Assembly (NCBI GenBank): GCA_044229975.1
Contig: JBGARZ010000002.1
Coordinates: forward strand, 448,001-512,000
DNA: 64,000 nt
From: Polyangiales bacterium
GTDB lineage: Bacteria > Myxococcota_A > Polyangia > Polyangiales > Ga0077539
Direction of reading: 5' to 3'
Shown here: piece after piece, positions 53,663 through 59,380 of the stretch
How positions within the stretch are numbered: the first letter of the stretch is position 1
How the letters are laid out: every line of letters begins with the position of its first letter
Translations under genes and position numbers: made by a program
Notes under the pieces: model-generated
The model's input: only the letters and a program-made list of their open reading frames with translations
The model's database searches: none
Told to the model about the DNA's origin: nothing

Positions 53663-54850
53663 ATGGCTGTCCCCGAATCCTTCTCCCCTCGCGCCGCGTG
53701 CGCGCGCTGCCTGCGACCGATCGCGCTGTGCTGGTGCGCCCACCTCACGCGCCTCGACACCCGCACCCGCGTGGTGCTGCTCCAGCACCCGCGCGAGCGC
53801 ACCGTCGCCATCGGCACCGCTCGCATGGCGAGCCTGTGCCTCCCCAACTCCGAGCTCCACGTCGGCGTCGAGTGGGACCAGTCCGCCGCCCTCGCCCGCG
53901 CGCTCTCCGACCCCGCCCGCCCCGCGGCACTACTGTACCCCGGCGAGGGTGCCGTCGACGTCGTCGCGCACCCGCCGTCGGGTCCCATCACGCTCGTCGT
54001 CGTCGATGGGACGTGGAGCCACACGCGCAAGCTCGTGCGCCTCAACCCCGCGCTCGCGGCGTTGCCGAGGTACTCGTTTACGCCGCCCGCGCCGAGCGAG
54101 TACCGCATCCGCCGCGAGCCGAAGGAGACCTTCGTGTCGACGCTCGAAGCGCTGGTGCATGTGCTCGGCGCCATCGAGGGGGAGCCCGAACGGTTCCGCG
54201 CGATGCTCGCCCCCTTCCGCGCGATGATCGACGCGCAGATCGCCTGCGAGGCCGAGCGACAGCACCACCGGGGGCGTGGTCCGCGACCGCCGAAGCCGCC
54301 GCGACCGCGGTTGCCGTCACCGCTCGCGGGGCGCGCGGCCGACGTGGTGTGCGTCATCGGCGAGGCCAACGCGTGGCCCCGCGGCGCCGACCGATCGCCC
54401 GCCCCCTTCGCGCAGGAGCTCGTGCAGTGGATCGCACACCGACCGGCGACGGGCGAGACCTTCGAGGCGATCGTCAGGCCGCAGCGCCCGGTGTCGCCCG
54501 CCATCGAGTCGCAGACGGGCCTTCGCGCCGACGAGGTGATGTCGGGCGAGAGCGTCGCGGAGGCGATGGCGCGTTGGCGCGAGTTCATCCGCGAGACCGA
54601 CCTCGTGTGCGCGTGGGGTGACTACGGGACGCAGCTCTTCGACGCCGTCGGCGGCTACATCCCCGGCGCGCTCATCGACCTGCGACGGCACGCGCGCATC
54701 GAGGCCAACGACAAGGTAGGCGGGCCGCTCGAATACCTCGCGAGCCTCGGTGGAGCGGAGGACGAGACGACGCCCGTCGGACGAGCGCGATCGGGAGTGC
54801 GACTGGGTCAGATCGTGGCGGTGGCACGCAGGCTCGCCGCGACGGGGTGA
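53663..54850 (+). CDS. tapT: DTW-domain tRNA-uridine aminocarboxypropyltransferase with a C-terminal exonuclease-like domain
   Basis: CARC..P..LCWC, LQHPRE, GTAR, LLYP, VVDGTW, YRIRREP, STLEA. Confidence 0.85.
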   Translation: MAVPESFSPRAACARCLRPIALCWCAHLTRLDTRTRVVLLQHPRERTVAIGTARMASLCLPNSELHVGVEWDQSAALARALSDPARPAALLYPGEGAVDVVAHPPSGPITLVVVDGTWSHTRKLVRLNPALAALPRYSFTPPAPSEYRIRREPKETFVSTLEALVHVLGAIEGEPERFRAMLAPFRAMIDAQIACEAERQHHRGRGPRPPKPPRPRLPSPLAGRAADVVCVIGEANAWPRGADRSPAPFAQELVQWIAHRPATGETFEAIVRPQRPVSPAIESQTGLRADEVMSGESVAEAMARWREFIRETDLVCAWGDYGTQLFDAVGGYIPGALIDLRRHARIEANDKVGGPLEYLASLGGAEDETTPVGRARSGVRLGQIVAVARRLAATG

Positions 54851-54858
54851 TGGCGGGT

Positions 54859-54892
54859 CCGCCCGAAGGAGAGAGGTCCCTCCTCCGGGCGG
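54859..54892 (-). terminator. Long hairpin between the convergent tuf paralogue and tapT
   Basis: Minus-strand CCGCCCGGAGGAG-GGACCTCT-CTCCTTCGGGCGG, 13-bp stem with one G-U pair, 14 nt after the tuf stop. Confidence 0.65.
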
Positions 54893-54905
54893 TTCCCTGG
54901 TGGGG

Positions 54906-56081
<1,176 letters not shown>

Positions 56082-56140
56082 TGGATATTACCTCCTGTGC
56101 ATCGGACCAAATAGGCGTTGGTCCGAAGGTGTGATGCGCC

Positions 56141-56183
56141 AGAACGCGAAAACCCCCTCCTGCGGTGTCGCGGGAGGGGGTTT
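56141..56183 (-). terminator. Intrinsic terminator (attenuator) in the tuf leader
   Basis: Minus strand AAACCCCCTCC-C-GCG-ACAC-CGC-A-GGAGGGGG-TTTTCGCGTTCT. Confidence 0.8.
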
Positions 56184-56212
56184 CGATGGAAGCGTCGGTA
56201 GCGGTTGTCGGC

Positions 56213-56317
56213 TTACCTGTGTGACGCTCGTTCGTGGCCCTCTCGCGCGCAGCGATCCGCTGACAGCGCTGAAGCGCTGGCTGAGCGGACTGATGCGTTG
56301 AGGGCTGAGAGGCGCAT
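56213..56317 (-). CDS. Putative 34-aa leader peptide (uORF) MRLSALNASVRSASASALSADRCAREGHERASHR
   Basis: ATG 10 nt after the -10 box; ends TAA about 30 nt before the terminator; overlaps the antiterminator arm. Not in the ORF track. Confidence 0.7.
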   Translation of the reverse strand: MRLSALNASVRSASASALSADRCAREGHERASHR

Positions 56318-56327
56318 TGCGGGTGCG

Positions 56328-56356
56328 ACCATGAACCCATGCCGAGAGAGTGTCAA
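56328..56356 (-). promoter_or_regulatory. Sigma70-type promoter of the tuf paralogue leader
   Basis: Perfect TTGACA, 17-nt spacer, CATGGT; the -35 overlaps the stop codon of the upstream oxidoreductase. Confidence 0.65.
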
Positions 56357-57942
56357 GAACCCTCTGCAACAAGCGTCGTCGCCGCCGTCACCCCCGCTCG
56401 GACGGCCGCCTCGGTGCTCGGCGTCGGTTGCGACGACTTCACCCAGTCACCGGCGAAGAGGAGGTTGTCGTATCCCGATACACGCGCGCCCAACCGATAC
56501 TTCCAGTGCCCTGGCTCGGCGAGCAGGTATCGCATGTGGTGCGCCGTGTTGCGGCGAAACTCCCAGCGGTGTCCGTCCTCGCGCGCGAAGACCTTGGCGG
56601 CGTCGAAGCGCGTGCCATCAACGAACGGAAGACCGCCAAGGTTCTTCAACATCCGCCGCACGAGCTCGTTGTCGGTGAGCTCGCCGTCGAGGCCCTCCTG
56701 GCCGAGCATCTCCACCACGCTGCCTCGCCCCGGTCGCAGCGCGGCGACCCGGTTGGCGTAGTCGATCACCGTCGCCGCGGGCTGCGGCGTGCCCAGCACC
56801 ACCGTGTCGTAGTCCGACGGAAACACCCGCTCCGACAGCCACGCGCGCAGGCTGATGGACGCCACCGTCCGCAGCTTCCACAGCCCGCGCAGCTCGCGGT
56901 GGTCGAGCACCGACGCGTCGAAGTCCGGCGTCGTCCGCAGGAGCGCGCGCAGGCTGTCCACGGGCAGCGCGGAGATGACCACGTCGAAGTCCTCGCCGAC
57001 CTTCAGCACGCGCTCGACGCTGCCCGCGGGCGGCGCCGGGTCGCCCTTCGGATACGGCGCCTCGGCCAGCGGGTCGCCACCCTCGAAGGGCTCGACGCGC
57101 ACGTGCTCGAAGACGCCGCTGATGGGGACGGCGTTCGCCATGGAGCGCAGCACCACCTCGCGGACCCGCTGCCCCTTCGGGTCGAGCGTGAGGCGCGTCG
57201 CCTTCGTACAGAACTCGATGGTGCCGCCCGACTCACGGAAGGCGCGGGCGATGGGTTCGATGAGCACCTCGCCCACCGGACCATTGAAGTAGAGAACGGT
57301 CGGCTTCTTGAAACCGGCCATGTCGCGAAAGCCCTTCACGCCGACGTACGCTGACCCCTCGCTGGGATAGTTGTAGGTCAGGTCGAACAGGTACCTGAAC
57401 CACGGGAGTCGGGTGAGGTCAGCGTCGAGCCCGTGCGCCACACACCAGGGCGTGAAGCCGTCCTCGTCCATCGACGGCGGTGGATCGCCCTTCCAGAACT
57501 CCACCGCCATCCGCGCGAAGAAGAGCCCGAGCCGAAGTTTCTGCGAGGGGTTCATCCCGCGGTAGGTGAAGAAGTCGGACTCCAGCAGCGCACGCACGTC
57601 GAGCGGCCCCGACGGTAGGCGCAGCGTGTTGACCGCGTTGGCGCCCGAGTCGTAGATGCGATGAACGCCACCGTTGTCGGTAAACCACCGTTCATCGGAC
57701 ACCGAGCGGCCGCAGCGCGCGAGGAGCTTCGGCACCGCCGTGTAATATCCGAAGAGGGAGTGAAACCCCGTCTCCATGTAGCGCCCGTCGGGCAGGCGCC
57801 AGCTCGCGGCCTTGCCTCCGAGTCGGCCCTCCATGCAGACCAGCGTCACGTCGTAGCGCTCGCGCGCCTGGTCGAGAATCTCCAGACCCGCCGCGAGGCC
57901 CGCGAGGCCCCCGCCCAGGATCAACACCCGCTTCTTGGTCAC
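56353..57942 (-). CDS. FAD-dependent oxidoreductase, phytoene/zeta-carotene desaturase (amine oxidase) superfamily
   Basis: VLILGGGLAGL, LGGKAASW, ETGFHSLFGYY, NLLFAGDWV, EAAVRAG. Confidence 0.85.
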   Translation of the reverse strand: MTKKRVLILGGGLAGLAAGLEILDQARERYDVTLVCMEGRLGGKAASWRLPDGRYMETGFHSLFGYYTAVPKLLARCGRSVSDERWFTDNGGVHRIYDSGANAVNTLRLPSGPLDVRALLESDFFTYRGMNPSQKLRLGLFFARMAVEFWKGDPPPSMDEDGFTPWCVAHGLDADLTRLPWFRYLFDLTYNYPSEGSAYVGVKGFRDMAGFKKPTVLYFNGPVGEVLIEPIARAFRESGGTIEFCTKATRLTLDPKGQRVREVVLRSMANAVPISGVFEHVRVEPFEGGDPLAEAPYPKGDPAPPAGSVERVLKVGEDFDVVISALPVDSLRALLRTTPDFDASVLDHRELRGLWKLRTVASISLRAWLSERVFPSDYDTVVLGTPQPAATVIDYANRVAALRPGRGSVVEMLGQEGLDGELTDNELVRRMLKNLGGLPFVDGTRFDAAKVFAREDGHRWEFRRNTAHHMRYLLAEPGHWKYRLGARVSGYDNLLFAGDWVKSSQPTPSTEAAVRAGVTAATTLVAEGS

Positions 57943-57952
57943 GCCGTCACCC

Positions 57953-59380
57953 TCAGATCTTCTTGAGCACCACGTCGCGCCGCGCCTCGCCACGGAGCGT
58001 TCCGTCGACGCTGGTCGCGATCACCCGCGCCCGCAGCCGCTCGCCCCGGGGCATCGCCCCTTCGTCCACCACCATCACGCTCACGTCGAGCCCGTCGCGG
58101 CGCATCAGCACCTCGCCCGACTGCCGCTCCAACAGAAACCGGTACCGCAGCGGCACCTGCGGATCTCGCCGCTTCACCCTCCACGAAAACACCGCCAGCC
58201 CCACGTCGTTTCGGCTCACGTCCATGGTGAGCTTCGGGTCGTCGTATCGCTTGATGAGCTCGGCGAAGGCCACTCCCTTCACGGCCTTCCCCCGACACAA
58301 TCCGCTCACCCGACACGAGCCCTCCCAGAACGACCCCGCGCGATTGACCACTCCCCCGGTGAGCGCCGCCGCCAACGCGACCCACGGTCGGCCGTCGTCG
58401 TCGACGATGGGTGTGAGCTGGTCGTGGTGGCGCGGCGTGATCTCCAGGTCGGTGTCCCACTCCGCGGCCCGAAAGCGCCAGCCCGCCGAGTACACGGCGC
58501 CCTGTTTGGGCGAGCGCCAGAAGCGCGTGCGGGTGAAGTCGTGGTTGCCGATGATGCGCTTGAACTCACCATCGGCCGTGATGAGCCCGGCGCCCCCGAA
58601 GGCTTCCACGGAGGGGGAGGTCTCATCGGGGTTCCAGACCGTGGTGAGCATGATCTCGTCCCGCGAGTCGAGCTGGATGCTCATCCACTCGTACTCTTCC
58701 AACATGCGATTGCGGAACGGGGTGACGAAGAAATCTCCCCATTGGTGATCGAACCAACCGATACCCGCCACGGAGACCGTCTCGGCGCCGAGGCGCAGCG
58801 TACCCTTTGCCGCCAGGCGGGTCAGTGAGTAGTAGGAGAACCACCCGCTATCGGCGAAGGGCAGATATCCGATACCGCCTGCCTCGTAGGGGACCTTTTC
58901 GTTCTTGAGGTTGAGCTCGACCGCGAACTTCCCTGCGTCGTCGATGGCGCTCAGCTTCGACGAGAAGTCGGTGTCCACCGAGACCCAGCGGTCTTCCCCG
59001 CCGGGGTGCTTGAAGAGCGTGTCGAGGCGCCCCGACGCGGCGCGCAGCGTCCCCAGCGTGGTGCCCGTCCAGGCGCCCAGGTAGCGGTCTTCGCTGTCCC
59101 AGGCCCGCACCACGAGGAAGCGCAGGTGCTGGGTGAAGTACGCGGCGAAGACCACAAAGGTCCTCCCCTGGCCGCCCTTCTCCTCCTCAACATGGGCGTT
59201 GAGGTAGATCCACTCCATGTGACAAGGGCCGGGCGACGTGATCGATCGCTCTGCGGACCCTGAAATCCCCAACCGGTGATGCCAGCCCTCGTCGAGGGGA
59301 AAGGTCAGCGCGCTGCTCTTGCGGTGATACGGCTTGTTCCGCCAGGGCGCGTCGGGCACCACGGGTCCGTCGCCGGGCAT
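57953..59380 (-). CDS. CrtC/AttH-like tandem lipocalin-fold protein
   Basis: HMEWIYLNAH, YYSLTRL, GWFDHQWG, EWMSIQL, FWEG, GVAFAEL; TGATG coupling to xdh. Confidence 0.8.
   Translation of the reverse strand: MPGDGPVVPDAPWRNKPYHRKSSALTFPLDEGWHHRLGISGSAERSITSPGPCHMEWIYLNAHVEEEKGGQGRTFVVFAAYFTQHLRFLVVRAWDSEDRYLGAWTGTTLGTLRAASGRLDTLFKHPGGEDRWVSVDTDFSSKLSAIDDAGKFAVELNLKNEKVPYEAGGIGYLPFADSGWFSYYSLTRLAAKGTLRLGAETVSVAGIGWFDHQWGDFFVTPFRNRMLEEYEWMSIQLDSRDEIMLTTVWNPDETSPSVEAFGGAGLITADGEFKRIIGNHDFTRTRFWRSPKQGAVYSAGWRFRAAEWDTDLEITPRHHDQLTPIVDDDGRPWVALAAALTGGVVNRAGSFWEGSCRVSGLCRGKAVKGVAFAELIKRYDDPKLTMDVSRNDVGLAVFSWRVKRRDPQVPLRYRFLLERQSGEVLMRRDGLDVSVMVVDEGAMPRGERLRARVIATSVDGTLRGEARRDVVLKKI

Follow-up and report, generated by a model that had tools for sequence, protein, structure and literature searches.

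What could place the gene for a second, divergent elongation factor Tu (EF-Tu) under the control of the ribosome is the question raised by a locus on the minus strand of a 64,000 nt stretch of a Polyangiales bacterium genome (GCA_044229975.1, contig JBGARZ010000002.1, positions 448,001-512,000 of the forward strand). This whole stretch is referred to here as the window, and coordinates are given within it. A preliminary description had proposed that a terminator and antiterminator controlled by a short upstream open reading frame (uORF) precede a spare EF-Tu gene at this locus, and the combined evidence of conservation, covariation and ribosome-masked folding supports a putative switch of this kind. 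Judged by comparative sequence analysis, the leader is a real, conserved regulatory element.

The leader opens with a -35 box TTGACA (56351..56356) and, after a spacer of 17 nt, a -10 box CATGGT (56328..56333) that matches TATAAT at three of six positions. Transcription would start near 56321, leaving about 4-5 nt of leader ahead of a uORF of 34 codons and a TAA stop (56213..56317), which has no Shine-Dalgarno (SD) sequence of its own and encodes a peptide with no Pfam match. Within the uORF, a predicted 1:2 stem (56237..56305; -36.0 kcal/mol folded alone) closes GCCCUC on GAGGGC around two inner helices, and codons 24-27 supply the antiterminator strand, or segment 2 (56238..56247), whose partner is 56178-56169 (shuffle p 0.01). 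A predicted hairpin across the uORF stop codon (56186..56231; -14.0 kcal/mol) falls inside this antiterminator helix. It is followed by a hairpin resembling an intrinsic terminator (56148..56183; predicted at -25.8 kcal/mol) with a UUUU tail, in which the arms CCCCCTCC (from 56180) and GGAGGGGG (from 56160) precede TTTT, and then by the tuf SD AGGAGG (56091..56096) and the gene itself (54906..56081). Promoter, uORF, GC hairpin with U-tract, SD and tuf thus all lie where the preliminary description had put them. The pairing of 56247-56238 with 56178-56169 that it had drawn by hand holds at 9 of 10 positions, the mismatch opposing A56243 to C56173, and its 1:2 helices and stop-codon hairpin both appear in the minimum-energy fold of the leader (-108.6 kcal/mol, z -6.69; 0 of 200 shuffles equally stable).

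A consensus scan of 54000-58000 recognized no promoter and no terminator, on account of the weak -10 box and the four-U tail. Both assignments rest instead on conservation: the terminator covaries, as detailed below, and 15 of 25 leaders carry a -35 box of the TTG(A/C)(C/A) type 35-42 nt ahead of the uORF start, a distance that points to a very short 5' leader. Between the terminator and the SD lies a further small, stable hairpin (56101..56128), predicted to leave the SD mostly free; similar hairpins can be recognized by eye in three related leaders (L002-L004). The TGA stop codon of the upstream gene, a member of the flavin amine-oxidoreductase family (57993-56353, minus strand), falls within the -35 box, and transcripts of that gene could accordingly enter the leader as well.

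The product of the downstream gene (391 aa) is recognizably an EF-Tu by sequence, by its match to TIGR00485 (523.8 bits against a cut-off of 522.4) and by its residues, the G-domain motifs, His84 and the tRNA-binding residues all being in place. It is 51% identical to the housekeeping protein, the sole other EF-Tu that turned up in the genome (93% complete), which is encoded on contig C28 after the end of an EF-G-like gene. Relatives with a name, 70-83% identical to it, come from myxobacteria (Pendulispora, Polyangiaceae, Labilithrix, Archangium), cultured carriers of the clade including Archangium violaceum and Pendulispora brunnea. A tree of the EF-Tu proteins from the loci gathered places it in a long-branched clade of 28 members with support 1.0. 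GTP-binding and switch residues are invariant in all 28 (D138 in 27), and the clade has lost the first N-terminal residues and shows characteristic changes (E. coli numbering): R333G in 28/28, E259Q in 24, R262H in 20 and Y160H in 17. The window paralogue carries all four of these changes, keeps the GTPase residues intact and is missing the canonical N-terminal residues. We take positions 160, 333 and 259-262 to be contacts for kirromycin, pulvomycin, GE2270A or the acceptor end of the tRNA. A protein scan of the genome collection returned nearly exclusively canonical EF-Tu, with one of 80 loci within the clade. Apart from these, four genomes of one genus (G010-G013; e.g. G013:C25:25684-26838) have a much more divergent EF-Tu-like match at 36-40% identity.

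Six of the 30 further genomes examined from the family have an orthologue of the paralogue gene, and each of the six has an orthologous uORF of 33-39 codons followed by a hairpin, embedded in unrelated upstream DNA. Across the clade, 25 of 28 loci have a uORF of 25-40 codons, and 22 of those 25 also have a U-tailed hairpin; with one weak case (L044) dropped, the leader layout is counted in 21 of 28 clade members. The uORF leader is absent from L034, L035 and L051. A strict automatic filter passed 13 of the 28 clade leaders, as against 4 of 105 regions upstream of canonical tuf genes, and 10 of 25 loci held out from all earlier work, one of them (L207) doubtful. Among the 15 held-out loci that fail, L197 and L209 show a hairpin by eye, L202 and L205 have another type of leader, and in about six the paralogue comes after tRNA-like genes. 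The leader is common in the clade and not universal.

Departures from the layout fall into recognizable forms. L036 and L037, both clade members, have a conserved uORF of 27-28 codons and no clear U-tailed terminator, and L038, L044, L202 and L205 likewise show no clear U-tailed terminator after a uORF of 37-40 codons in which S(K/M)QD(A/V) and LRWP-like motifs occur (those of L202 and L205 recognized by eye). These six leaders are possibly translational attenuators or of a peptide-dependent type. In L035, L195, L200, L208, L216, L217 and L218, genes that look tRNA-like by eye stand in place of the leader, which suggests that these copies of the paralogue sit in mobile elements or tRNA arrays. 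In L195 there are, in addition, three direct repeats of about 62 nt immediately before the paralogue gene.

The preliminary description had named uORF conservation and covariation as the tests of its proposal; the first is borne out by the counts above, and the second by both helices of the presumptive switch. Over the ten pairs of the terminator, an alignment of 21 leaders has 88.1% of its 210 cells paired and 18 cells changed on both sides, with 0 of 500 shuffles as good and every slid control lower. With a ribosome placed at codon 8, pairing between the terminator arm and the uORF reaches P>=0.6 in 19 of 20 leaders (L128 excluded), against 80 of 500 uORF shuffles, and among the held-out leaders it recurs in 8 of 10, with 42 of 120 shuffles reaching it. 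The captor strand changes along with the arm: the fit of an arm to the uORF of its own leader is better than to those of other leaders (22 leaders; permutation p 0.002, though pooled p-values overstate the significance because the loci are related), and arm changes are matched by changes in the uORF strand, as in L003/L004, L006/L007 and L039. Taken one leader at a time, duplex shuffle tests give p>0.2 in 9 of 22, and a uORF-based antiterminator is not seen in L049 and L128.

How the two helices would compete was predicted by folding nascent RNA that ended before the terminator 3' arm is free, with the ribosome footprint masked at a given codon. In the window, codons 24-27 pair with the terminator 5' arm (2:3 pairing) at a predicted P of 0.7-0.9 while the ribosome occupies codons 1-19, in agreement with the earlier proposal that a ribosome lagging in the first part of the uORF frees segment 2. 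A ribosome at codons 22-29 abolishes this pairing (P 0), and one at the stop codon leaves P 0.34-0.71; across 21 leaders, pairing of arm and uORF remains above 0.6 in six with the ribosome at the stop. The companion idea, that a ribosome finishing the uORF melts segment 2, thus stands as a full block over codons 22-29 and is only partial at the stop itself. In the window RNA without any ribosome the 2:3 helix is still preferred (P 0.73-0.88). At 0.73 the window compares with 10 of 21 leaders in which no-ribosome 2:3 pairing is <=0.12, two of these being leaders that lack 2:3 anyway. The proposed 1:2 helix folds in the minimum-energy structure as drawn yet is weak in the window, where the 2:3 helix outcompetes it when unmasked, so that it is no strong default there.

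Folding of the complete leader at equilibrium under ribosome masks was also considered and discarded as a model of the switch, since it gives a terminator P of 1.0 whatever the ribosome position and only folds of nascent length change state. Once complete, the terminator fold beats the antiterminated fold by 10-12 kcal/mol, so any switch must be kinetic.

What the uORF might measure is suggested by its codons. The serine codon TCA is rare, at 1.57 per 1000 codons in the predicted genes of the window's genome, which served as codon-usage reference for all loci, and the paralogue genes use it only 3 times in 9760 codons. The window uORF uses it at codons 4, 9, 12, 16, 19 and 32, five of the six falling in codons 4-19. 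Over 25 uORFs TCA occurs 45 times in frame as against 11 and 3 times in the other frames, and the bias persists in a thinned set of 17 uORFs (23 vs 10 and 3) and in the held-out uORFs (15 vs 2 and 2). Of the 106 TCN codons in the uORFs 45 are TCA, compared with 42 of 297 TCN triplets (14%) in non-coding leader DNA (p 6e-9) and 4% in the coding sequences of the genome. A general preference for codons ending in A was examined and rejected: ACA and GCA are commoner than in the codon usage of the genome, yet measured against non-coding DNA they show no excess (p 0.20 and 0.65, respectively), and TCA alone stands out from that background. Placement of TCA and ACA in the range before the captor strand is marginal (42 vs 14 in 19 leaders, p 0.04), and the uORFs of L039, L040, L043, L046-L049 and L128 have no TCA at all. 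Predicted genes for tRNA-Ser(UGA) are present in the genome. On this codon evidence, in-frame rare TCA codons, which the preliminary description had missed, are likely the sensing element.

The reading that we favour, at a probability of roughly three in four, is that the leader acts as a ribosome-sensing transcription attenuator of the whiB7 kind, allowing read-through into the spare EF-Tu gene when ribosomes slow at rare serine codons. According to this model, during normal decoding the ribosome would pass over codons 22-31, mask the captor strand and let transcription end near 56148. While the ribosome was still in codons 1-19, codons 24-27 would be free to capture the emerging 5' arm of the terminator, the hairpin would not form in time and tuf would be transcribed. 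The slow points would be the five TCA codons within codons 4-19, and the EF-Tu-GTP-Ser-tRNA(UGA) complex would presumably become limiting first if housekeeping EF-Tu runs short or is inhibited, or if charging of Ser-tRNA drops; the paralogue may then sustain elongation. RNA sequencing runs neither help nor harm this reading, with 5-8% of words matched, on conserved parts of tuf from other organisms, and the leader uncovered.

The same RNA mechanism would serve if only the signal were different and the leader sensed starvation for serine, or for threonine or alanine in some lineages, as trpL and thrL do for their amino acids, with the paralogue serving starvation. This is a plausible reading, to which we give somewhat less than even odds. 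Serine makes up 15% of uORF codons, 2.8 times its share of the proteome, and occurs in runs in L032, L047 and L048; the available part of a preprint on the whiB7 leader likewise has its uORF sense alanine limitation (bioRxiv 10.1101/2023.06.02.543512). The selection falls, however, on the rare codon TCA and not on serine alone. The window uORF has no tandem run of a single amino acid, and the controlled gene is not one for serine supply, so that in place of a cognate run before the supply genes of that amino acid we find dispersed codons before an EF-Tu gene.

Stalling could also be brought about by the nascent peptide rather than by codon rarity, in a drug- or sequence-dependent manner such as that of ermC or vmlR. 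Peptides rich in Ala, Ser and Thr favour arrest of the chloramphenicol type, and the uORFs show a recurrent MR(L/T/F) start, a C-(A/V)-R motif near codons 23-26 and about threefold enrichment in Cys. An arrest peptide is nonetheless unlikely: the peptide sequence is not well kept among clade members, the synonymous bias toward TCA points to codons, and the GAGG of the captor strand is read in different frames (GAG, GGA, CGG-AGG) from leader to leader, which indicates a constraint on the RNA and not on the peptide. Least probable of all, and in our judgement very doubtful, is a hairpin that acts simply as an insulating terminator or a processing site, with an incidental uORF and leaky read-through into tuf. 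The hairpin does always win at equilibrium, and the upstream gene does end inside the -35 box in a region where the consensus scan called no terminator. Such a role would not account for a start codon, an ORF length, an in-frame TCA bias and an arm-uORF complementarity that are all kept among divergent leaders despite different upstream genes.

Mechanistically an element of this type is textbook. In classical leader-peptide attenuators (trpL, hisL, thrL, leuL, ilv) the position of the ribosome is read out through 1:2, 2:3 and 3:4 helices, and the window leader resembles them in having such alternative helices, predicted to be set by ribosome position. It differs in that their targets are amino-acid or synthetase operons and their signal a run of cognate codons, whereas here the target is a translation factor and the rare TCA codons are dispersed. 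Antitermination controlled by a uORF is also the logic described, in the available part of the account, for the whiB7 leader (bioRxiv 10.1101/2023.06.02.543512). That leader and its wblC counterpart (see also PMC7157823, consulted in part) share with ours a uORF, an intrinsic terminator and an antiterminator, a predicted read-through on slow uORF translation and a service to translation stress, the likeness being one of described features. The whiB7 leader controls a transcription factor and has an Ala-rich uORF, while the window leader would control the EF-Tu paralogue directly, through a uORF biased to Ser(TCA). Premature termination is known for an EF-Tu gene in Salmonella, whose tufB is autoregulated in this way (Brandis 2016, as cited in a passage of PMC6735719), there through Rho and on a near-identical housekeeping copy, here putatively through a uORF and an intrinsic hairpin on a divergent paralogue.

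What would be new is such a leader on an EF-Tu gene. The preliminary description had known of no such arrangement for tuf in myxobacteria, and the literature searched, which included few subscription journals, contained no uORF attenuator on an EF-Tu gene, although one could be listed in the supplementary files that accompany PMC2965389, PMC4342817 and the whiB7 preprint on bioRxiv. In the parts of these sources available, PMC8079986 lists eight Streptomyces leader peptides in a main text without the word 'tuf', and PMC2965389 mentions tuf only by way of the rpsL leader. Rfam gave no match at gathering score, only two chance matches (E<=5) appearing in the window leader and none in 20 related loci.

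The closest known counterpart of the paralogue lies in Streptomyces. In the tree, L145, which is the second EF-Tu encoded by the Streptomyces virginiae genome, branches as sister to the clade (FastTree 0.97, on long branches, with one tuf3 sequence and few diagnostic residues in common). The window paralogue is 54.5% identical to it, less than to E. coli EF-Tu (57.7%). L145 is presumably tuf3; its promoter region looks like the tuf3 ChIP primer and like the WblC box (GAAAWY) given in the available part of PMC7157823, where tuf3 is reported to be activated by WblC. In the supplements of PMC4895711 we found no row with a tuf3 start site. EF-Tu3 has been described as inhibitor-resistant and expressed under stress (PMC6804068, PMC12309360, in the parts available), and a 2015 survey names, in the text accessible, the actinomycete EF-Tu (actEF-Tu) alone as a distinct subfamily (PMC4342817). 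The two proteins are alike in being divergent second EF-Tus tied to stress and in sharing H160; tuf3 differs in keeping R333, E259 and the N-terminus, at each of which the window paralogue is changed. Activation by WblC finds no counterpart here for the paralogue, as the WhiB family (PF02467) has no match in this 93%-complete genome.

Leaders with a uORF are found there too. Among the best 30 tuf3-like loci from 61 genomes of the order around Streptomyces virginiae (about 16 further matches are tuf3-like), all 30 have a uORF of 32-60 codons ending in G(A/V)RS immediately ahead of a conserved GC hairpin. These uORFs are Ala-rich (381 of 1012 codons, ~38%, in the 29 counted). The leaders (L145 and L164-L193) lie about 190-280 nt upstream of the gene, behind a promoter resembling a WblC box, and we found no description of them in the literature searched. 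They have no U-tail, and our leader model R1, taken up again below, matches 0 of 10 loci. A terminating helix guessed for them held in only 5 of 30 and was rejected, so only the uORF and the hairpin are claimed for the tuf3-like leaders.

Taken together with the clade, these leaders invite a wider and more speculative reading, which we hold tentatively and think rather less likely than not to be correct in full. A widespread clade of remodelled EF-Tus would stand under a gauge of ternary-complex supply, in which rare Ser-UCA codons time the uORF and confine synthesis of the spare factor to conditions where housekeeping EF-Tu is drugged, modified or scarce. An independent, Ala-rich version would serve Streptomyces tuf3 and, in addition to WblC, give a cis-acting account of the long-known induction of that gene by stress. 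The changes in the acceptor-end pocket (E259Q, M260A/S, R262H) and the invariant R333G would make the paralogue insensitive to inhibitors or biased to particular aminoacyl-tRNAs. If the attenuator reading is true, the translation machine would gauge its own decoding speed and recruit a different elongation factor in a feedback loop; the leader would offer a short, portable reporter for EF-Tu-directed stress, and how and why spare EF-Tus of the tuf3 type are induced would become directly testable in Streptomyces.

No further copy of the leader came up in the genome by blastn, by motif scans or with model R1, whose next match has E 0.18; none of 14 weak matches inspected has the layout, and a genome-wide regulon of such leaders is thus unsupported. 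The sensitivity of R1 is low: of the held-out loci it matches 3 of 25, and it matches none of 7 atypical clade loci and none of 20 canonical ones, besides none of the 10 tuf3-like loci. A generic scan passed a Ser-rich ORF of 42 codons followed by a GC hairpin on contig C32 (plus strand, near 448591), with no downstream gene in the crude gene set. At the other end of the locus, a DTW-domain gene (PF03942; 53663-54850, plus strand) converges on the tuf paralogue, and a GC hairpin lies between the two near 54890-54857.
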